Assembly (NCBI GenBank): GCA_938084905.1
Contig: CALKEQ010000001.1
Location: 106,974-170,973 of the forward strand
Direction: 5' to 3'
DNA: 64,000 bases
From: an uncultured bacterium
GTDB lineage: Bacteria > Desulfobacterota > Syntrophorhabdia > Syntrophorhabdales > JANXAF01
The notes beneath the pieces were generated by a model, which worked only from the letters and a program-made list of their open reading frames with translations, ran no database searches and had not been told where the DNA came from. Positions within the stretch are counted from its first letter, which is position 1, and the number at the start of each line of letters is the position of its first letter. Positions 42,815-52,526 of the stretch are shown one piece after another. The position numbers and the translations under genes were made by a program.

Positions 42815-43533
42815 GGAAGGTTATCTGCCTTCTTTCTCTGGTCATTTCAACTTTGGCTCTTTCCCTTCTTTCATTCGTTCTCTTTATCTTTGACAGAAAG
42901 GGTGAGATTCTTCATGAGATAGAGAGGCTATGGGCAAAGATTTACCTTCATTCAGCAGGAATAAAAGTAATAGTTAATGGTACGGAAAGCGTAAAATCTC
43001 AACCGGTCATACTTATGTGTAATCACCAAAGCGCCCTCGACATATTTGTCCTCCTATATGGCCTTCCACTATCTTTCAGGTTTGTCGCAAAAAAGGGACT
43101 TTTTAGAATACCCTTTATGGGATGGGCAATGAAGTGCGTAGGTCACATAAGTATAGACAGAGAAAGCCCTAGAGACTCAATGAGGGCTCTTGAGGAGGCA
43201 AAGGAGAAGATAAAAAGAGGGCAAAGTGTACTCATATTTCCAGAAGGGACAAGAAGTGAAGATGGTACCCTTTTACCCTTTAAGCGAGGGTCATTCCACA
43301 TTGTGAGTCTCAGTCGCGTTCCTGTTGTGCCTGTTGCCATTTACGGGAGCTCCCTCCTTATGCCTAAGGGAAAGGTCTTACCAATAAAAAGTGGAACCGT
43401 ATGGATCGAAATTGGAACCCCGATTCTGGCAAAAGGGGACAAGGTAAAAAAAGCAGAAATAATGGAGGAAGTTAGGAAACAGATGGAGACACTTATCGGA
43501 AAGGGAAGAATGAGGGCTTATCATGAGCACTGA
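42811..43533 (+). CDS. plsC: 1-acyl-sn-glycerol-3-phosphate acyltransferase
   Basis: NHQSALD, FPEGTRS. Confidence 0.93.
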   Translation: MRKVICLLSLVISTLALSLLSFVLFIFDRKGEILHEIERLWAKIYLHSAGIKVIVNGTESVKSQPVILMCNHQSALDIFVLLYGLPLSFRFVAKKGLFRIPFMGWAMKCVGHISIDRESPRDSMRALEEAKEKIKRGQSVLIFPEGTRSEDGTLLPFKRGSFHIVSLSRVPVVPVAIYGSSLLMPKGKVLPIKSGTVWIEIGTPILAKGDKVKKAEIMEEVRKQMETLIGKGRMRAYHEH

Positions 43534-45550
43534 AATGAAGAAAGAGCTTTTAGGACTTTCTCTTTTCGGTCTTTTCCTTTTCCTTTTTTTTTCACTTATC
43601 TCCTACCATCCTCTCGATCTTTCCTTTAGCACCTCCTCACTGACAGTTCACAATTACTGTGGAAAGGCAGGCTCCTACGTAGCAGATCTACTTATTCAAC
43701 TTACAGGCCTTTCGAGCTACCTTATCCTTCTCTATGTGCTTGCCCTCTCCCTAATATTGGTTAAAAAGAGAAAAGTCTCCAGCTACTTTACCTTTTTTGC
43801 CGGACTCACTTTCCTTTTCGTATCCACATCAACCTTCCTTCAGCTCTGGATAAAAAGCGTAAGTATAAAGGGAGTAAGGATACCAGCATCTGGGCTTATA
43901 GGTGTTATTTTTGAAAGGTCCTTTGTCAACTCCTTCGGATACTTTGGAAGCCACCTTATCCTCGCCTTCGTTTTAGTCTTCTCATTCTTCCTTTTAGCAC
44001 ACGCTCCACTTATCTCCATTTTGGAAAAAAGACTGAAGGGGAGAAATAGAGAGGAAAAAAGGGAAATAAGGGTAGTTGAAAGGCAACCGTATGAGGCAAA
44101 AGCTGTTTCTGAAACAAAAAAGGAGTTCAAGCAGGAGCCTTTTGAATTTCTGAAAAATATCGGGCCTTATAAGCTTCCGTCTGTTGATCTTTTAGATCCT
44201 GTGGAAAAGAAGGATATAAAGGTAGATAAGGAGACTATAAATCTCAATGCCAGAATTCTGGAAAAAAAGTTAAAGGATTATGGAATAGAAGGCGAGGTAA
44301 AGGAGGTAAGCCCTGGACCAGTTATAACCCTCTACGAGTTTGAACCTGCTCCCGGAATAAAGATAAGCAGGATTGCCAATTTGGCTGACGATCTTGCCAT
44401 GGCTCTCAGTGCCACATCTATCCGTATCGTCGCTCCAATTCCCGGTAAATCCGTTGTTGGAATTGAGATTCCAAATCCAGTAAGACAGACAGTTTACCTT
44501 CGCGAAATAATAGAGTCCAAGCCATTTATAGAGTCTGAATCCTTCCTGACTCTTGCACTTGGAAAAACCATATATGGGGAACCATTCGTTGCTGATCTCA
44601 CAAAGATGCCCCATCTTCTTGTGGCAGGCTCAACGGGCTCGGGCAAAAGCGTTTCCCTAAACAGCATGATCTGTAGCATACTTTTTAAGGCTTCCCCACT
44701 TAACGTCCGTTTCCTGATGATAGACTTGAAAATGCTCGAACTTTCCTTCTATGAGGGTATCCCCCATCTTCTCCTTCCCGTTGTCACCAACCCAAAAAAC
44801 GCGAAGCTTTCCTTGAGGTGGTTGATAGAGGAAATGGAAAGAAGGTACACCATAATGGCTGAAAAGGGCGTAAGAAACATAGAAAAGTACAATCAGAAGA
44901 TGGTGAAGGAAAATTCCGATCCCCTTCCCTACATCGTCGTTGTAATAGATGAGCTTGCTGATCTCATGATGGTTTCAACAAGGGAAGTGGAGGAGTACAT
45001 AGCCCGTCTTGCTCAAATGGCAAGGGCATCCGGTATTCACCTCATAATCGCAACCCAGAGACCATCAGTCGATGTCCTCACGGGTATTATAAAGGCGAAT
45101 TTTCCAGCACGCATATCTTTTCAAGTTTCCTCTAAAGTTGACTCAAGAACCATCCTTGACACAAATGGGGCTGAGAGTCTTCTTGGCCAAGGAGACATGC
45201 TTTTTTTAGGTCCAGGAGCAGGAAGACTTCAAAGGATCCACGGCCCTTTTGTTTCAGAGAATGAGATAAGAAGGATCGTGGAATTCTTAAAAGCACAGGG
45301 TCGTCCTTCCTATCAAACAGAGATACTGAAGGAGAAAGAGGTAATTGAGGAAGAGGAATTTGAGGATGAAAAGTACGAAGAGGCAAAACAGTTTGTAATG
45401 GAGAAAGGGGAGGCATCTATAAGCATGATTCAGAGGAGATTTAGAATAGGATATAACAGGGCGGCAAGGATAATGGAAAGGATGGAGAAAGAAGGGATTG
45501 TTGGACCATCAGACGGGGTAAAACCTAGGGAGGTTTTGAAGAGAAAGTGA
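43523..45550 (+). CDS. ftsK: DNA translocase FtsK
   Basis: 4-TM N-terminus, AGSTGSGKS, DELADLM, ATQRPSVDV, gamma domain RIGYNRAAR. Confidence 0.97.
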   Translation: MSTEMKKELLGLSLFGLFLFLFFSLISYHPLDLSFSTSSLTVHNYCGKAGSYVADLLIQLTGLSSYLILLYVLALSLILVKKRKVSSYFTFFAGLTFLFVSTSTFLQLWIKSVSIKGVRIPASGLIGVIFERSFVNSFGYFGSHLILAFVLVFSFFLLAHAPLISILEKRLKGRNREEKREIRVVERQPYEAKAVSETKKEFKQEPFEFLKNIGPYKLPSVDLLDPVEKKDIKVDKETINLNARILEKKLKDYGIEGEVKEVSPGPVITLYEFEPAPGIKISRIANLADDLAMALSATSIRIVAPIPGKSVVGIEIPNPVRQTVYLREIIESKPFIESESFLTLALGKTIYGEPFVADLTKMPHLLVAGSTGSGKSVSLNSMICSILFKASPLNVRFLMIDLKMLELSFYEGIPHLLLPVVTNPKNAKLSLRWLIEEMERRYTIMAEKGVRNIEKYNQKMVKENSDPLPYIVVVIDELADLMMVSTREVEEYIARLAQMARASGIHLIIATQRPSVDVLTGIIKANFPARISFQVSSKVDSRTILDTNGAESLLGQGDMLFLGPGAGRLQRIHGPFVSENEIRRIVEFLKAQGRPSYQTEILKEKEVIEEEEFEDEKYEEAKQFVMEKGEASISMIQRRFRIGYNRAARIMERMEKEGIVGPSDGVKPREVLKRK

Positions 45551-46167
45551 GGAGACTAGGACAGATCCTTCTGTTCTTAACTCTTTATTCATTTTTACCG
45601 TGTTTTGCTCACCAACTGGGCCATATTGTGGAAAAATACAAATCGATTGAAACCTTTAAAGCGAACTTCAAACAGACGGTCTTTCTGGCTAATCTGGATG
45701 AAGAAAGGGATTTCTCTGGAAGCTTTTTTTACAAAAAAGGGAAGGGATTTCTCTGGATGTACGACAGCCCAAAAAAGCGTTACTTCCTTTTTGATGGTAC
45801 ATACCTTTACCAATACGATGAAGATAAACCCTTCATAAGGAAAGAAAGGGTAGATAGCACAGGAACAAGAAGCGTCTTTTTAGATTTGATAAATGATATG
45901 GGGAACTTGGACAGACACTTTTTTGTAAAAGAACGGTCAATTGAAGGTGCAAAAGAGGTGATCTATCTGGAACCAAAAAACGGGGGGATGATAAAGTCTG
46001 TAAGGATATGGTTCAGCCGGGAACTGAAGCTTGAAAGAATTGAGATAGTTGAAAAAGGCGGGAACAGGAACGTCCTCTCTTTCAGTCAGGTGGTTCTAAA
46101 TGGTGAAATAGAAGATAAAAAGTTCCAATTCAAGAAAGAAAAGGGGAAAGAAGTGATAGTGAGATAA
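45547..46167 (+). CDS. lolA: outer-membrane lipoprotein carrier LolA
   Basis: Signal peptide, FKANFKQ, FLWMY..P..DG; follows ftsK. Confidence 0.85.
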   Translation: MRRLGQILLFLTLYSFLPCFAHQLGHIVEKYKSIETFKANFKQTVFLANLDEERDFSGSFFYKKGKGFLWMYDSPKKRYFLFDGTYLYQYDEDKPFIRKERVDSTGTRSVFLDLINDMGNLDRHFFVKERSIEGAKEVIYLEPKNGGMIKSVRIWFSRELKLERIEIVEKGGNRNVLSFSQVVLNGEIEDKKFQFKKEKGKEVIVR

Positions 46168-46898
46168 TGGCAAGAGTCAAAGATGAGGCAATAGTATTAA
46201 GAAGATTACCATACGGTGAGTCGGACAGAATCGTGCACTTATTCACCAGTTCTTCTGGAAAAATATCGGCTATCGCAAAGGGAGGCGCGAAGAGCTTAAG
46301 GAGATTCATGAATACCTTAGAGCCCTTAAGAATCATATACGTGGAGTATTTTGATAAATCTTGGAGGGGGCTTGCCAGAATTGAGAACGCCCACATTTTG
46401 GAAGACTTTTCAGAAATAGAAAGGGATTTAAGAAAATTTTTCATTGCAAGTTTCCTCACTGAGATAGTGGACAAACTTGCAAAGGAGAAGGAACCCTACC
46501 CTCAGATTTTCGATCTCTTAGGCGCCGCTTTAAGGAGACTTAAGACTTCGCAGGTCTCCTCTCTGGATACGCTAATGCTACTTCTTAAAATTCTTGAACT
46601 ACTTGGCTTTCTTCCAAACTTCAAGACCTGTGTCCACTGTGGAAAGACTGTAGATCAAAAAAGCAAAACATTCTTTTCCAGTGAGAAAGGGGGGATATTG
46701 TGTGGGAGTTGCAGAATGTTCAATCCTTATAAGACTTACCCTTTCGAACTTCTTTCGTCTTTAGGTGGCGACCAAAAAACCCTTGAGATGGACGATGAAT
46801 TAGTTAAAATGGCTTTCGAGTTAATGGACGATTTTATGAAGTATCATCTTGATATGGACTTTAGGTCTTATAGGTTCGTAAAATCGTCTCATTCATGA
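46167..46898 (+). CDS. recO: DNA repair protein RecO
   Basis: YGESDRIV, AKGG, CVHC...GGILCGSC zinc finger. Confidence 0.95.
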   Translation: MARVKDEAIVLRRLPYGESDRIVHLFTSSSGKISAIAKGGAKSLRRFMNTLEPLRIIYVEYFDKSWRGLARIENAHILEDFSEIERDLRKFFIASFLTEIVDKLAKEKEPYPQIFDLLGAALRRLKTSQVSSLDTLMLLLKILELLGFLPNFKTCVHCGKTVDQKSKTFFSSEKGGILCGSCRMFNPYKTYPFELLSSLGGDQKTLEMDDELVKMAFELMDDFMKYHLDMDFRSYRFVKSSHS

Positions 46899-46927: not shown

Positions 46928-46956
46928 TTGAAAAGGAAAAAATAAAGGGTTAAAAT
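46928..46956 (+). promoter_or_regulatory. sigma70 promoter for the Ubl-iscU-iscS operon (near-leaderless)
   Basis: TTGAAA-N17-TAAAAT, 8 nt before ATG 46965, no SD. Confidence 0.6.
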
Positions 46957-46964
46957 GAAAGAAA

Positions 46965-47258
46965 ATGAAGGTCACTGTTAAGCTAACTTCAAACCTTATC
47001 TCCTCTGGTGGAGTCGCGATTCCGGCCCAAATTGAACTCGAAAAGGATGGAAGTACAGTTCTAGATCTGCTTCAAAAACTGAACGAGAGATTTCCTCATC
47101 TTAAGCTCATAAACAATGGGGAGATGGGTGAGGATCTAAGGTACGTTTACGTAAACGGGGTAGATCATTTCAGTCTTAAGGAAGGATTGAAAACAAAACT
47201 TAAAGAGTCAGATGAAGTACATGTGGAAATATTCATGGAGCCACTTGCTGGGGGGTAA
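46965..47258 (+). CDS. MoaD/ThiS/SAMP-like ubiquitin-fold sulfur carrier
   Basis: TVLDLL, YVNG, GLKTKL..SDEV, C-terminal LAGG-stop. Confidence 0.9.
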   Translation: MKVTVKLTSNLISSGGVAIPAQIELEKDGSTVLDLLQKLNERFPHLKLINNGEMGEDLRYVYVNGVDHFSLKEGLKTKLKESDEVHVEIFMEPLAGG

Positions 47259-47284
47259 AATCCTCCAACTAGAAGGAGGAAACC

Positions 47285-47794
47285 ATGGAATATTCGGAGA
47301 TAGTACTTGACCACTTTAAAAACCCCAGAAATGTTGGTGTAATTGAAGATGCGGACGGAGTTGGGGAAGTCGGGAATCCCATATGCGGTGACATGATGAA
47401 GATAACAATAAAGGTGGAGGAGGACAGGATAAAGGATGTTAAGTTTGCGACTTTCGGTTGCGGTGCAGCAATAGCAGTATCGAGCATGGTCACAGAGATG
47501 GCAAAAGGCAAAACTCTCGAGGAGGCACTCAAGATCACAAACACAGATGTAGCTCAAGCACTCGGTGGACTACCAAAGAATAAGCTTCACTGCTCCAACC
47601 TTGGTGCTGAGGCTTTAAAAAAAGCGATAATAGATTACTACACCCGTAAAAAGGGCAAAGAGGGATACAGATCTGAGGTCTCATCTACAGAGTACATTGG
47701 AGAAAGAGAGGGAAAGTGTGTCTGCCCGTATTGCGAGCAGGAGATTCCAAAAAACATTCCTTATTGTTCAAAGTGCGGTAAGCTCATCAAATAG
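47285..47794 (+). CDS. iscU: Fe-S scaffold IscU/NifU-N with C-terminal zinc ribbon
   Basis: YSEIVLDHFKNPRNVG, NPICGD, FGCGAAIA, KLHCS; extra CPYC-x10-CSKC. Confidence 0.93.
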   Translation: MEYSEIVLDHFKNPRNVGVIEDADGVGEVGNPICGDMMKITIKVEEDRIKDVKFATFGCGAAIAVSSMVTEMAKGKTLEEALKITNTDVAQALGGLPKNKLHCSNLGAEALKKAIIDYYTRKKGKEGYRSEVSSTEYIGEREGKCVCPYCEQEIPKNIPYCSKCGKLIK

Positions 47795-47823
47795 TAATTC
47801 CAAAAATAAAAAAAGGAGCCAAA

Positions 47824-48993
47824 ATGAACGTTATCTACCTTGACCACATATCTGCCACACCTCTTCATCCCGAAGTGAAAAAGGCGATGATAGAGTACAT
47901 TGAAAATGACGGGTTTGGAAATCCTCTTGGCCAGCATCGAATAGGCGATAAAGCGAACGAACTTCTCGAAAGATCGAGAGAAAAGGTCGCAAACCTCATC
48001 GGCGCAAAACCAAAGGAAATAGTCTTCACCTCTGGCGGAACAGAGTCCACAAATCACGCAATAAAAGGAGTGGCATTCGCCTTACAGAAAAAGGGCAAAC
48101 ATATAATAACCTCGAATATTGAACATCAAGCGGTCTCCAGGCCTTTGAGGGCATTGATGAAAATGGGATTCAACGTGACCTCTGTAGGGGTCGACAGATA
48201 CGGAATGGTGGACCCGGAGGACGTACGAAGGGCTATAAGGGAAGACACCATTTTAATAACCATAATGCACGCCAACAACGAGATAGGAACAATAGAACCG
48301 ATATCTGATATAGGAAGGATGGCAAAAGAGAGAGGCATCGTCTTTCACACTGATGCTGTGGCCTCCTGTGGTAATATTCCCGTAAATGTTGATGAACTTA
48401 ACGTAGATCTTTTGAGTCTCTCCGCAAACCAGTTTTACGGACCGTCAGGCATTGGCGCTCTCTACATAAGGGAAAAAACTCCAATAGTTCCCATACTGGA
48501 TGGAGGGATCCAGGAGTTTGGGAGAAGGGCGGGAACGCAAAACATGATAGGGATAGTAGGTATGGCGAAGGCCGCAGAATTAGCTCTAATAGAGATGCCT
48601 GAAAGAATGAAGAGGCAAAGGGAATTGAAGAATCAAATGATGAAGAGGATTTTGGAAATAGAAGATGTCATAATAAACGGTCATCCTGAAAAAAGCTTAC
48701 CAGGTTTACTTTCCTGTTCTATCAATTATGTTGAAGGTGAATCTTTGATGCTTCTTTTGGATGAAGCTGGAATCTGCGTTTCCACAAAATCTGCATGCGC
48801 CTCCGGTTCTTTAAGAGCTTCCCACGTTCTCACTGCGATTGGCCTAGATTACGTGAGAGCCCAGGGGACTCTCATATTCTCCTTCGGACGAGATAACACA
48901 ATGGAGGATGTGGAAAAGACCGTTGAGGTGCTAAAGAAATCTGTGGAGTTTCTTAGAAACATGTCTCCACTGTACAAAAAAAGGACAAGTTAA
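47824..48993 (+). CDS. iscS: IscS/NifS-like protein, predicted catalytically impaired desulfurase
   Basis: FTSGGTE, HANNEIG, SACASG (Cys325); SANQFYGP replaces SAHKFYGP. Confidence 0.88.
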   Translation: MNVIYLDHISATPLHPEVKKAMIEYIENDGFGNPLGQHRIGDKANELLERSREKVANLIGAKPKEIVFTSGGTESTNHAIKGVAFALQKKGKHIITSNIEHQAVSRPLRALMKMGFNVTSVGVDRYGMVDPEDVRRAIREDTILITIMHANNEIGTIEPISDIGRMAKERGIVFHTDAVASCGNIPVNVDELNVDLLSLSANQFYGPSGIGALYIREKTPIVPILDGGIQEFGRRAGTQNMIGIVGMAKAAELALIEMPERMKRQRELKNQMMKRILEIEDVIINGHPEKSLPGLLSCSINYVEGESLMLLLDEAGICVSTKSACASGSLRASHVLTAIGLDYVRAQGTLIFSFGRDNTMEDVEKTVEVLKKSVEFLRNMSPLYKKRTS

Positions 48994-48994
48994 C

Positions 48995-49456
48995 TCATCC
49001 TATTTCCAAGATCTGGTAAACTTTTTCACCTCCTGGCGCGGAAAACCTCACCTCCTCTCCCACGCTTTTTCCTATAAGTGCCCTTCCAAGAGGGGATGTA
49101 ATCGATATCTTTCCCTGTTTTACATCAGACTCGAATGGACCTACGATCTTGTAAAGAAATACCTCGTCAGTCTCTAAGTTTTTCAGTTTCACCATCGATC
49201 CAAATGTACAGACAGACAGAGAGCCATCATGTTCCACTATCTCTGAGTTTTCAAGCATCTTCTCAATCTCTGCAATTCTCTTCTGAAGGAATTGATACTC
49301 CTCTTTAGCCGCATCGTATTCCGCATTTTCAGAGATATCGCCATGGGCCCTTGCCTCCTCAATTGCTTTGAGGAGTTCAGGTCTTTTCTTTGCGATAAGG
49401 TATTCCCTTTCCTTCTTTAACCTTTCATACCCTTCCTTTGTAATTGGAATCTTCAT
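48995..49456 (-). CDS. greA: transcription elongation factor GreA
   Basis: ARAHGDISENAEYDAAK, ISITSPLGRAL; start at ATG 49456. Confidence 0.96.
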   Translation of the reverse strand: MKIPITKEGYERLKKEREYLIAKKRPELLKAIEEARAHGDISENAEYDAAKEEYQFLQKRIAEIEKMLENSEIVEHDGSLSVCTFGSMVKLKNLETDEVFLYKIVGPFESDVKQGKISITSPLGRALIGKSVGEEVRFSAPGGEKVYQILEIG

Positions 49457-49492
49457 ACCCACCTCTCTTTGAAAAAAGAGTGATTGTGGTTT

Positions 49493-49521
49493 ATTATATT
49501 GGAAACGGCGGATTAAAGCAA
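49493..49521 (-). promoter_or_regulatory. sigma70 promoter for greA
   Basis: Minus strand TTGCTT-N17-TATAAT. Confidence 0.7.
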
Positions 49522-49555
49522 ATGAAAACAAAGGCCCACTCGGTTTGGAGTAAAA

Positions 49556-49777
49556 ATGAAATTCGAAGACGGTTTAAGGAGGCTTGAAGAGATAGTTAAG
49601 TCCCTCGAGGAAGGAAGTCTCAGTCTGGATGAGGCACTCAATCTTTTCAAAGAAGGGATAAACTTGACGAATGAACTATCCAGGCGGCTGGAGGAGGTGG
49701 AGAGGAAGGTAGAAATTCTCATAAAAAAGGAAAACGGTTGTATAGAACCTGTGCCTTACTTAGAGGAAGAGGAATGA
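49556..49777 (+). CDS. xseB: exodeoxyribonuclease VII small subunit
   Basis: FEDGLRRLEEIV..LE...LSLDEAL..FKEG. Confidence 0.94.
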   Translation: MKFEDGLRRLEEIVKSLEEGSLSLDEALNLFKEGINLTNELSRRLEEVERKVEILIKKENGCIEPVPYLEEEE

Positions 49778-50661
49778 TAGACCTTAACGCCTATCTAAAT
49801 GAGAAAAGGATTTTGATAGAGAACGCTCTAAGGGAAATATTCATCTCTCTTAAGGACGTCCCCGGAATCTTAAAAGATTCAATGGAGTACATGCTCTTCT
49901 CAAATGGAAAGAAAATAAGGCCTATTTTAGCACTGGCAACATGTGAATCCCTTGGAAAGCCAGTTGACAATCTCCTCCCATTTGCGTGTGCAATAGAGAT
50001 GATCCACACTTACTCCCTCATCCACGATGACCTTCCGAGTATGGATAATGACGACTTCAGGAGGGGGAAACCAACGTGTCACAGGGTCTTTGGTGAGGCA
50101 ATCGCCATCCTTACCGGAGATGCCCTTCTAACTGAAGCTTTCAGGATCATGAGCGATAGCCGCTACACAGAAGGGGTTAGTCCAAGGATTGTAAAAAAGA
50201 TAATCTTCGAGATAGCGAAAGCTGCTGGTGCAGAAGGGATGGTTGCAGGGCAGGCGATGGATATTATGTACGATGGCCGCGAAGGGTCTAAAAGCATAGT
50301 CGACTATATACACACACATAAAACTTGCGCCCTCATTAGGGCTTCGGTCAGAGTTGGAGCAATAATGGGAGGGGCAAAAAAAAGGGAACTTGCGGCTCTG
50401 ACCAGATACGGAGAATGTGTTGGCCTTGCCTTTCAGATTGTGGATGATGTCCTTGACATCGAGGGGGACGAAGAGATAGTCGGCAAAAAACTGAAAAAGG
50501 ATAGAACAAAACAGACCTACGTTAAGCATTACGGCTTAGCCACATCCAAGCTGAAAGTGGAGAAACTCGTAGAAGAGGCAGAAAAATGCGTTCAGTTTCT
50601 TGGAGAGAAGGCAGAGCTGCTTAAAGGACTCGCCTCCTATATTGGAAGCAGGAATTTTTAA
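49774..50661 (+). CDS. ispA: geranyltranstransferase / farnesyl diphosphate synthase
   Basis: GKKIRP, SLIHDDLPSMDNDDFRRGKPT, FQIVDD; start at ATG 49774. Confidence 0.95.
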   Translation: MIDLNAYLNEKRILIENALREIFISLKDVPGILKDSMEYMLFSNGKKIRPILALATCESLGKPVDNLLPFACAIEMIHTYSLIHDDLPSMDNDDFRRGKPTCHRVFGEAIAILTGDALLTEAFRIMSDSRYTEGVSPRIVKKIIFEIAKAAGAEGMVAGQAMDIMYDGREGSKSIVDYIHTHKTCALIRASVRVGAIMGGAKKRELAALTRYGECVGLAFQIVDDVLDIEGDEEIVGKKLKKDRTKQTYVKHYGLATSKLKVEKLVEEAEKCVQFLGEKAELLKGLASYIGSRNF

Positions 50662-52526
50662 TGTACCTGGAAAAGGTCGAATACCCATCTGACCTAAAGA
50701 AGTTCACAGTAAATGAGCTCAATCACCTCTGTTCGGAAATAAGGGACCTTATAATAAGGACTGTTTCTCAAACAGGCGGCCACCTCTCTTCTAGTCTGGG
50801 AGTTGTTGAACTTACCGTGGCAATACATTACGTTTTTGACGCACCAAAGGATAAAATCATCTGGGATGTTGGCCACCAGTGCTACGCCCACAAGATTCTT
50901 ACAGGTAGAAAGGAGAGATTTAGAACCTTAAGACAGGATGGAGGTCTAAGCGGATTCCCCTCAAGGGAGGAGTCTATATACGATACGTTTAACACCGGTC
51001 ATGCGAGCAATTCAATTTCCATAGCTTGCGGTTTTGCAGAAGCGAAAAAAAGACTGAACTCTGATGAAAAGATTCTCGCAATCATAGGAGATGGCGCATT
51101 GTGCGGTGGGATGGCATTCGAGGCTTTAAATCATGCGGGACATGCGAAAAGCGATATAATCGTGATCCTCAATGATAATGAGATGTCAATTTCGAGAAGT
51201 ATAGGAGCCCTCTCATCTTATCTGAACAGGATAATGACGGGAGAATTCGTATCAAAGGCTAGGGAAAGGGTCAAGTCACTGATCAAAAATATCCCTGCAT
51301 TTGGTCCAAAATTTTACAAAATAGCAAAGTACATTGAGGAGGTCACAAAAGGTCTTATAGTCCCTGGTATTTTTTTTGAAGAACTTGGATTTAAGTACGT
51401 AGGTCCAATTGATGGACACAATCTTCAAGCGCTCATAGATACTTTGAAGAATGTCAAAAAACTTAAAGGACCTATACTCCTCCACGTCATTACGAAGAAG
51501 GGGAAGGGGTACACTTTTTCAGAAATGGATCCCGAGAGATTTCATGGGGTTTCAGAATTTGATACTGTTACTGGAGAGCCTAAAAAGGAGAGTAAGCCTA
51601 CCTACACAGACGTTTTTGGATCCACTTTACTCACCCTTGCCGAAAGAGATGAAAAAATAGTCGCCATAACTGCGGCGATGAGTTTGGGTACTGGACTGAG
51701 CCGTTTTGCAAAAGCTTTTCCTGATAGGTTTTTCGACATAGGTATCGCTGAGGAACACGCCGTCACCTTTGCGGCTGCCCTTTCTCTTACGGGTTTCAAA
51801 CCCTTTGTGGCCATCTACTCGACCTTTCTCCAGAGGGCTTACGATCAGATCCTTATAGATGTTTGTCTGCAGAGGATTCCTATATGTCTTTGCCTTGACA
51901 GGGGTGGAATTGTTGGCCAAGACGGTCCAACCCATCAGGGGGTTTTCGACCTTTCTTATCTGAGACATATGCCAAACATGGTCCTCATGGCCCCTAAGGA
52001 CGAGAACGAGCTAAGAAATATGTTATTTTCCGCATACTCATATGGAAGCCCAGTGGCTATTCGTTACCCAAAAGGTGAGGTAGTGGGAGTTAAAATGGAC
52101 GAGAATTTTAGCCTGATACCACTTGGTAAGTGGGAGATTTTAAAGGATGGAAAGGACGTTTTTATAATTGGTTGCGGAACAATGGTAAATGAGGCTTATC
52201 TTGCCGCTTACGAACTGGATAGGGAAGGGATAAGCTGTGGTGTTGTAAACGGGAGGTTCATAAAGCCTGTCGATTACGAGATGCTCAAAGAGATCGGAGG
52301 AAGATGCAAAAGAATCCTTACAGTCGAAGAGAACTCGATCGTTGGAGGATTTGGTGCAGCTGTCATGGAAGCTCTATCAGATTTGGATATTATTATCCCA
52401 GTGAAAAGACTTGGTGTTCCCGACACCTTCCTCTCCCACGGTACCCAACTCACACTTAGGCGAAAGCTTGGACTAACAAGTGAGGGGATATACAATTTTG
52501 TACGGGAATGGATAAAAAAAGAATAG
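50661..52526 (+). CDS. dxs: 1-deoxy-D-xylulose-5-phosphate synthase
   Basis: GGHL, WDVGHQ, GDGA, LNDNEMSI, IYSTFLQRAYDQ, DGPTH. Confidence 0.98.
   Translation: MYLEKVEYPSDLKKFTVNELNHLCSEIRDLIIRTVSQTGGHLSSSLGVVELTVAIHYVFDAPKDKIIWDVGHQCYAHKILTGRKERFRTLRQDGGLSGFPSREESIYDTFNTGHASNSISIACGFAEAKKRLNSDEKILAIIGDGALCGGMAFEALNHAGHAKSDIIVILNDNEMSISRSIGALSSYLNRIMTGEFVSKARERVKSLIKNIPAFGPKFYKIAKYIEEVTKGLIVPGIFFEELGFKYVGPIDGHNLQALIDTLKNVKKLKGPILLHVITKKGKGYTFSEMDPERFHGVSEFDTVTGEPKKESKPTYTDVFGSTLLTLAERDEKIVAITAAMSLGTGLSRFAKAFPDRFFDIGIAEEHAVTFAAALSLTGFKPFVAIYSTFLQRAYDQILIDVCLQRIPICLCLDRGGIVGQDGPTHQGVFDLSYLRHMPNMVLMAPKDENELRNMLFSAYSYGSPVAIRYPKGEVVGVKMDENFSLIPLGKWEILKDGKDVFIIGCGTMVNEAYLAAYELDREGISCGVVNGRFIKPVDYEMLKEIGGRCKRILTVEENSIVGGFGAAVMEALSDLDIIIPVKRLGVPDTFLSHGTQLTLRRKLGLTSEGIYNFVREWIKKE

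Follow-up and report, generated by a model that had tools for sequence, protein, structure and literature searches.

We analysed a 64,000-nucleotide stretch of DNA from an uncultured bacterium of the order Syntrophorhabdales (hereafter the window), in which three consecutive genes encode a ubiquitin-like protein (Ubl), an IscU scaffold with a cysteine ribbon at its C-terminus and an IscS/NifS-like protein of 389 amino acids that is devoid of the lysine binding pyridoxal 5'-phosphate (PLP). We refer to this lysine-less protein as IscS*. Our analysis suggests, with a probability of roughly 0.65, that IscS* and IscU constitute a non-catalytic scaffold module of the Archaeoglobus type and that its sulfur would come from outside the module. 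We favour a scaffold complex unable to produce its own persulfide because the active-site residues were lost jointly, because the E. coli IscS variants K206A and Q183E are inactive and because the IscS of Archaeoglobus fulgidus provides a parallel. An earlier note, made from the sequence alone, had proposed an undescribed, cysteine-independent assembly system that included all three genes. The features of the locus are as follows.

46928..46956, plus strand: sigma-70-like promoter candidate just 5' of the Ubl gene (TTGAAA, 17 nt spacer, TAAAAT; 10/12 matches)
46965..47258, plus strand: Ubl, ThiS/MoaD-family ubiquitin-like protein, 97 amino acids, PLAGG end (Pfam ThiS)
47285..47794, plus strand: IscU/NifU_N scaffold, 169 amino acids, with the scaffold domain at residues 2-123, a basic linker and the C-terminal Cys ribbon (PF01592)
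47717..47776, plus strand: Cys ribbon of IscU, C145-x-C147-P-Y-C150, 10 residues, C161-x-x-C164-G
47824..48993, plus strand: IscS*, IscS/NifS-like protein without the PLP lysine, 389 amino acids, no internal stop (PF00266)
48430..48432, plus strand: CAG, coding for Gln203 where E. coli IscS has the Schiff-base Lys206 (alignment to E. coli IscS)
48796..48798, plus strand: codon of Cys325, the mobile-loop cysteine equivalent to E. coli C328 (alignment to E. coli IscS)

Active-site residues of IscS* and the lysine-less clade

IscS* was aligned to E. coli K-12 IscS as given in its annotated record. At a constant offset of -3, K206 corresponds to Q203, H205 to N202, Q183 to A180 and R354 to I351, encoded by CAG, AAC, GCC and ATA, respectively. 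IscS* is thereby without the PLP Schiff-base lysine, the Gln183 that contacts PLP O3' and the Arg354 that binds the substrate carboxylate in cysteine desulfurases (EC 2.8.1.7). Residues H104, D180 and C328 of the E. coli enzyme are retained as H101, D177 and C325, the latter within a SACAS loop. All these losses and retentions, the offset, the CAG codon and the intact open reading frame (ORF) are exactly as the earlier note had read them. The best relative of solved structure, 9wep (384.7 bits), reads SFSAHK, DAVQS and VRFSFGR where IscS* reads SLSANQ, DAVAS and LIFSFGR.

The class-V aminotransferase profile is present, as PF00266 matches residues 4-365 (2.9e-80). Among the NCBIfam models, IscS* remained below the cut-offs of TIGR03402 NifS (467.1 versus 530.75) and TIGR02006 IscS (395.6 versus 643.2) and passed that of the subfamily NF002806 (318.2 versus 304), and pipelines and database names therefore call it a 'cysteine desulfurase'. 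This automated annotation is misleading, as the catalytic residues are missing. Thirteen aligned sequences (81% mean column identity) showed H101, D177, C325 and the C-terminal SPLY tail to be invariant. The E. coli variants K206A and Q183E show no desulfurase activity (PMC9978102). Since IscS* is without the residues needed for PLP chemistry, it probably lacks activity as well.

The altered motif is widely kept. Among the best 120 of 7,999 scored homologues it read AANQ in 100, SANQ in 15 and AAHQ in one, and the motif pattern missed four. Scanning GTDB species genomes returned 80 loci, 78 of them with a complete ORF; as the scan patterns had been taken from the lysine-less alignment, sampling was biased and prevalence cannot be read from these counts. 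The lysine was absent from 17 of these 78 sequences and present in 61; the equivalents of Gln183 and Arg354 were missing in 17/17 of the former, and the 61 have Q, HK and R. We then considered a tree of 82 sequences comprising the 78 locus sequences, the three IscS/NifS paralogues of the window's genome and E. coli IscS. All 19 lysine-less rows fell into one clade, with a Shimodaira-Hasegawa-like approximate likelihood ratio (SH-aLRT) support of 99, and of 98 after 15 columns around the three sites had been dropped. The losses at the lysine, Gln183 and Arg354 positions are common to 19/19 clade members, with replacements that are mostly small or hydrophobic, and their joint loss is more than chance. 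The clade is bacterial, and its record titles name Syntrophorhabdales, Syntrophaceae, Desulfobacterales, Nitrospirota, Planctomycetia, Omnitrophota and Anaerolineae. It splits in two, with IscS* in one subclade and the second lysine-less paralogue of the same genome in the sister subclade.

These data bear on the idea, raised by the earlier note as a possible refutation, that the substitutions represent strain-specific decay of a redundant gene. The genome does encode a canonical NifS, which would allow for redundancy. Against decay stand an intact ORF with a ribosome-binding site, a motif kept in the best homologues as well as in 29 of 30 relatives, and the depth and monophyly of the lysine-less clade. 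We therefore rejected decay, which is next to impossible on this evidence.

IscS* might alternatively still be an enzyme that holds PLP or another cofactor non-covalently and performs a sulfur chemistry other, or slower, than cysteine desulfuration. H101, D177, T238 and C325 are invariant, and E. coli K206A retains some PLP (PMC9978102), both of which would suit such an enzyme. This reading nevertheless seems very improbable to us, given that 19/19 sequences have jointly lost the lysine (Schiff base and general base), Gln183 (ligand of O3') and Arg354 (which binds the carboxylate), that K206A and Q183E are inactive (PMC9978102) and that PMC7585200 describes the equally altered A. fulgidus protein as inactive.

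The IscS*-IscU module and the rest of the genome

The partner of IscS* is a recognisable IscU (PF01592, 1.1e-52; TIGR03419, 198.9 versus a cut-off of 187.9) whose cluster ligands C34, D36, C59, H102 and C103 are all present and invariant in the aligned partners. The five cysteines of the ribbon are invariant in 19/19 aligned IscU partners. The Pfam model Zn_Ribbon_1 (PF13240) reached 21.7 bits on this tail, short of the 25 bits that it requires, and the metal bound may be zinc or else iron in a rubredoxin-like site. The extra ribbon described by the earlier note stands, as a putative zinc ribbon.

The ribbon and IscS* travel together. Our set of relatives comprised 61 genomes from one order and four families, from which we took 30 loci centred on the top IscU matches. 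All 30 encode an IscU with the tail (CxCPYC, 10 residues, CxxCG), and a ribbon-tailed IscU followed by an IscS with [SA]ANQ was found in 29, the remaining locus ending at a contig edge. Consistent with this, loci of a wider sample that have an IscU neighbour carried the ribbon tail in 9 of 14 lysine-less cases versus 0 of 27 canonical ones. Searching a word index with the IscU tail (residues 121-169) yielded two proteins and was too insensitive to gauge how far the ribbon has spread.

We also surveyed the window's genome (1.54 Mb, 98.1% complete), which contains three IscS/NifS-type genes, namely IscS*, a second lysine-less IscS and one canonical NifS. The second lysine-less IscS (410 amino acids) has Q202, M203 in place of the lysine, A180 and T359 and is followed by a plain IscU without a ribbon. 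The loci outside the window are these.

Contig C7, 130328-136866, minus strand: string of the second lysine-less IscS, with IscS, IscU, UPF0047, a 147-amino-acid unknown protein, FdhA, FdhB and an FdhE-like protein
Contig C7, 136952-140705, plus strand: xanthine-dehydrogenase (XDH)-type protein of 936 amino acids and FAD subunit, divergent to the second IscS-IscU string
Contig C3, 48296-50827: canonical NifS with neighbours, after UPF0280 (NF003323) and NIL-ferredoxin genes and before dodecin

The FdhA gene of the second string contains one in-frame TGA (context ARL*HSPT), which probably encodes selenocysteine. The canonical NifS has no C-terminal SPLY/W tail, the tail that binds IscU. Gene sets like NifS/UPF0280/NIL-ferredoxin are, as we assume, tied to sulfide assimilation in methanogens. 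Only two IscU genes occur in the genome, both adjoining a lysine-less IscS. SufB/D, an A-type carrier (Fe-S_biosyn family) and HscB were not found in this 98.1% complete genome, and SufB/D was likewise found in 0/5 relatives. The two lysine-less IscS-IscU modules are the only recognisable iron-sulfur (Fe-S) scaffolds in the genome. In each of the five relatives that we checked, the window-type IscS* is accompanied by two or more canonical class-V proteins. The earlier note had recommended looking for a canonical desulfurase and a ThiF/MoeB E1, and the genome holds one of each, the canonical NifS and a rhodanese-MoeB fusion. Because NifS is present, an assembly independent of cysteine, as the note had proposed, is not forced.

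The conserved unit is a two-gene module of IscS* and ribbon-tailed IscU, and we propose that it works like the A. fulgidus (IscS-IscU)2 complex. IscS* would hold IscU, and its Cys325 would act as the fourth ligand of, or as a sulfur relay to, the nascent [2Fe-2S] cluster. IscS* itself would be unable to release sulfur from cysteine, and sulfur would therefore have to enter from outside the module. In strict anaerobes such as these the source might be sulfide; alternatively, sulfur might arrive on a carrier protein loaded by other enzymes, such as the genome's own tail-less canonical NifS and rhodanese-MoeB E1. Sulfide would be the simplest source; anaerobic E. coli without IscS can feed IscU from sulfide, as stated in PMC13015791. 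Delivery by a protein is plausible in view of the neighbouring genes, which encode TusA in the sister subclade, Ubl in the window and a MoaE-like protein in its cousins.

Ubl, other neighbours and candidate sulfur routes

The three ORFs share one orientation and lie between recO (46167-46898) and the convergent greA (48995-49531, minus strand). They are separated by gaps of 26 bp (Ubl-iscU) and 29 bp (iscU-IscS*), each with a Shine-Dalgarno-like GGAGG or AAGGAG, and are presumably co-transcribed. The promoter candidate at 46928-46956, whose first base is also where the region of the earlier note begins, is weak evidence on its own, as the region contains eight sigma-70-like sites versus 5.5 expected from shuffles. 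No iscR, iscA, hscBA, fdx or iscX was found in the Ubl-iscU-IscS* locus. The flanks appear to be ordinary housekeeping genes, which we take, by family recall from their translations, to be ftsK, lolA-like and recO upstream (43523-46898) and greA (minus strand), xseB, ispA and dxs downstream (49556-52526 region).

Ubl was described by the earlier note as a GG-terminated MoaD/SAMP-like protein, which is borne out by its PLAGG end and by the Pfam ThiS model (25 bits versus a cut-off of 22.5). Its best NCBIfam match, TIGR01687 moaD_arch (41.3 versus 49.5), and SAMP1 (29 versus 60) did not reach their cut-offs. The PLAGG C-terminus is invariant in 22/22 aligned close relatives, and PL[AG]GG is typical of the family. 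This family is small, with 51 cluster representatives among 1.84 billion proteins in an exhaustive profile search and members in 20 of 401 genomes of the phylum. The profile match, the Gly-Gly end and the single E1 of the genome, a rhodanese-MoeB fusion (NF006444, 470 bits versus a cut-off of 449), are what is expected of a ThiS/MoaD-type carrier. The features of MoaD proper are missing, with TIGR01687 below its cut-off and no MoaE found in the genome. We regard Ubl as a genuine ThiS/MoaD-type protein and a credible thiocarboxylate carrier that would have been recruited to the module only in the window's family.

Ubl precedes iscU in merely 3 of the 30 relatives' loci, those of the window's genome and of two other genera of its family. 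Within the family the trio is kept in 3/3 genera despite differing upstream neighbours, and all seven close Ubl homologues retrieved by a word-index search reside on contigs that also carry close IscS* homologues. No Ubl homologue was detected by phmmer in the 80 loci of the GTDB scan. The link between Ubl, IscU and IscS* is stable but young and narrow. Of the co-occurrence that the earlier note wanted tested, the pairing of ribbon-IscU with IscS* was upheld (29/30), while Ubl, limited to one family, falls away as part of a conserved system.

We looked at 33 loci of the Ubl family. In 21 the Ubl gene follows FAD and 2Fe-2S subunits as the last gene of an XDH-type operon, so the usual company of Ubl is a molybdoenzyme operon. 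In five loci the surroundings are of the Rrf2/ThiF/MOSC kind, and in three of these five the next gene downstream is ThiF; three loci lie before IscU-IscS*, two are cut by contig ends and two have other neighbours. Distant Ubl members of one other family of the phylum (f18; loci L180 and L182) reside in a cluster of Rrf2, hexapeptide transferase, Ubl and ThiF, in the vicinity of which a MOSC protein and, in one cluster, a CysK-like gene, a second GG-ended protein and a canonical IscS are encoded; this looks like a CysO-type or molybdenum-cofactor-sulfurase-like sulfur cluster. The genome's own XDH-type gene was dismissed as an orthologue of the Ubl-carrying XDH-type operon of family f4, the identity being only 29-32%.

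As in the model of the earlier note, the trio could assemble Fe-S clusters with sulfur from a thiocarboxylate. Ubl would be adenylated by the rhodanese-MoeB E1, the resulting Ubl-COSH would hand its sulfur to Cys325 or IscU, and no ferredoxin would be needed; thiocarboxylate sulfur, being at the oxidation level of sulfide, would fit an operon without a ferredoxin gene. We consider this reading possible though unlikely. The invariant GG end together with the Pfam ThiS match, the one E1 with a rhodanese domain, the three loci in which distant Ubl members lie directly upstream of ThiF, the trio in 3/3 genera and the shared contigs in 7/7 cases all speak for it. The sister subclade moreover has another sulfur carrier close by: 7 of the 17 lysine-less loci, versus 0 of 61 canonical ones, have a Pfam-confirmed TusA within 3 kb of IscS (L017, L021, L027, L028, L048, L070 and L090, about four lineages; the local TusA model was seeded from five of these seven). 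On the other hand, Ubl is absent from 27 of 30 IscU-ribbon/IscS* loci, its orthologues elsewhere end XDH-type operons (21/33), the three trio genomes are close kin, which makes shared synteny weak evidence, and two other GG-ended carriers exist in the genome, one TtuB-like beside TtuA and one beside AFOR. A complex prediction for IscS*, IscU and Ubl scored 0.01 against a mark of 0.32, and we counted it neither way. The genome has one TusA of its own, away from the window locus. Rrf2 (IscR-like) regulators, which count in favour of the scaffold reading, head two sister-subclade loci, L017 and L021; L017 and L020 in addition encode NifU C-terminal domains that stand alone.

The module might also serve sulfur insertion into the molybdenum/tungsten (Mo/W) cofactor or the maturation of Mo/W iron-sulfur enzymes, with Ubl as a MoaD-type carrier and IscS* as a docking hub. 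E. coli IscS is a docking hub for MoaD and MoeB. Several neighbourhoods point in this direction. In 7 of 22 extended loci, all from families f2 and f4, the next gene after IscS* is a co-oriented MoaE-like one (115-120 amino acids, Pfam MoaE 44-51 bits).

L187 and L190-L195, e.g. L195:4497-4859, minus strand: MoaE-like gene (Pfam MoaE)

The best NCBIfam match of Ubl is moaD_arch, its family ends operons of the XDH type (MoCoBD-FAD-2Fe2S) or lies near MOSC and ThiF, and the second IscS*-IscU pair heads the selenocysteine formate-dehydrogenase string, divergent to an XDH-type gene. We still judge this role unlikely. All cluster ligands of IscU are kept and no other scaffold was found in the genome, so that a general Fe-S role is needed anyway; the adjacencies all come from one order and may share one ancestry. 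MoaE is encoded by 14 of 21 genomes of the order, yet no MoaE was found in G000, G001 and G002, which represent the window's family, even though the window's genome (G000) has MoaC, the rhodanese-MoeB fusion and the Mo/W enzymes FdhA, AFOR and XDH-type. The MoaE-like neighbour furthermore occurs in G003 and G008, which have no Ubl match, and on these grounds we rejected Ubl as an obligate partner of the MoaE-like gene. The scaffold, thiocarboxylate and Mo/W readings are not mutually exclusive.

A further gene was seen in the extended loci. In 11 of the 22, the gene immediately 5' of the ribbon-tailed IscU encodes a YeiH-family membrane protein (PF03601, 'putative sulfate export'); it is divergent in 10 of the 11 and often preceded by a radical-SAM/SPASM gene.

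L188:2163-3692, minus strand; also L013: YeiH-family gene (PF03601)

Taken more broadly, the lysine-less clade could embody a sulfur-relay design, a tentative and rather doubtful proposal. A passive hub made of a desulfurase shell would be fed by carriers (TusA in one subclade, a PLAGG Ubl charged by rhodanese-MoeB in the window's family) and would pass sulfur to IscU, whose Cys ribbon would make up for a function that disappeared along with PLP, for instance donor docking or the delivery of iron or electrons. It would be the sole Fe-S route in genome-reduced members like the present one and might also feed the molybdenum cofactor.

Coming back to the externally supplied scaffold, which we prefer, several points weigh against it. 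The invariance of H101, D177 and T238 (E. coli H104, D180 and T243) and the PLP still held by E. coli K206A (PMC9978102) make a bound cofactor or other ligand possible. The MoaE-like neighbour and a Ubl family that is mostly tied to molybdoenzymes suggest that the module may serve molybdenum-cofactor sulfur traffic, either in place of general Fe-S assembly or in addition to it. Relatives of families f2 and f4 have kept a canonical NifS/IscS as well, which in G003 and G008 lies beside a 280-amino-acid NifU-like gene, so that the module does not stand alone in them.

The findings bear on how sulfur reaches Fe-S clusters in strict anaerobes and on the role of an inactive IscS. Our data indicate that a presumably inactive IscS is not just an archaeal oddity, since the bacterial clade is coherent and has a ribbon-IscU and TusA, Ubl or MoaE-like neighbours, and one or more small genomes seem to depend on lysine-less modules alone. 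The three to five proteins involved offer a defined set for testing sulfide, persulfide and thiocarboxylate as sulfur sources.

Comparison with known systems

The closest counterpart is the IscS of A. fulgidus, which has Asp at the lysine position and, as reported, no desulfurase activity and a Cys that serves as ligand to the cluster on IscU. The earlier note had invoked this precedent, and rightly so: it is stated in PMC7585200, and the motif pattern is seen in the alignment of 4eb5. The coordination of the [2Fe-2S] cluster by A. fulgidus IscS-IscU is also described in the review PMC13066941. Structures of A. fulgidus IscS2-IscU are deposited as 4eb5, 4eb7 and 4hvk, and a variant carrying Lys at the Asp position as 4r5f. 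The sequence of 4eb5 reads SSND, DATAS and LLLTLGR, so that Q to A, HK to ND and R to L affect the same positions that are changed in IscS*. A. fulgidus IscS2 and IscS* also have in common the loop Cys, the SPLY tail and an adjacent IscU. They differ in that the former is archaeal with Asp at the lysine position, whereas IscS* is bacterial with Gln. The bit scores of 4eb5, 360.2 against IscS* but 447.8 against a Methanoperedens IscS of the canonical type, hint that the lysine was lost separately in A. fulgidus and in the bacterial clade. The ribbon tail on IscU and the Ubl, TusA and MoaE-like neighbours are features of the bacterial clade, and we came across no report of them for A. fulgidus, whose own locus lay outside the analysis.

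PMC7585200 likewise reports that Methanosarcina acetivorans IscS1 is without the catalytic lysine and suggests for it the same mode of action as for the A. fulgidus protein. Compared by description only, it is archaeal and, unlike the modules of the window's genome, coexists with an active IscS2 and SufBC.

The minimal iron-sulfur system (MIS), reportedly defined by Garcia et al. 2022, is another system of relevance. It is a two-gene pair of IscS-like MisS and IscU-like MisU, without chaperones or carriers and typical of anaerobes, according to PMC13066941. Our genome resembles it in the adjacent IscS-like and IscU-like genes and in that no HscB, A-type carrier or SufB/D was found. However, MisS is described as a cysteine desulfurase, while the catalytic residues of IscS* are gone.

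The IscS*-IscU pair matches E. coli IscS-IscU in fold, in the ligands on IscU and in having both the loop Cys and the C-terminal tail; it differs from the E. coli ISC system by the four active-site residues lost in IscS* and the extra ribbon on IscU. Ubl is like the ThiS, MoaD, SAMP and CysO carriers in its beta-grasp-family profile, its GG end, the E1 in the genome and the family members next to ThiF. It is set apart from moaD_arch and SAMP1 by scores below their cut-offs, by its small and distinct PL[AG]GG family and by a genome in which no MoaE was found.

We found no description of a ribbon-tailed IscU or of a bacterial lysine-less IscS in the open-access literature searched, on which the supplements of Garcia et al. 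2022 may bear; nor did we find there the link to the ribbon-IscU, the sulfur-carrier neighbours or a genome seemingly dependent on such modules alone. As such, a non-catalytic IscS has already been described in A. fulgidus, and M. acetivorans IscS1 is a suspected second case. The earlier note's 'undescribed system' was therefore an overstatement, and the module of the window is better regarded as a variant, found in bacteria, of the non-catalytic IscS-IscU pair already known in archaea.

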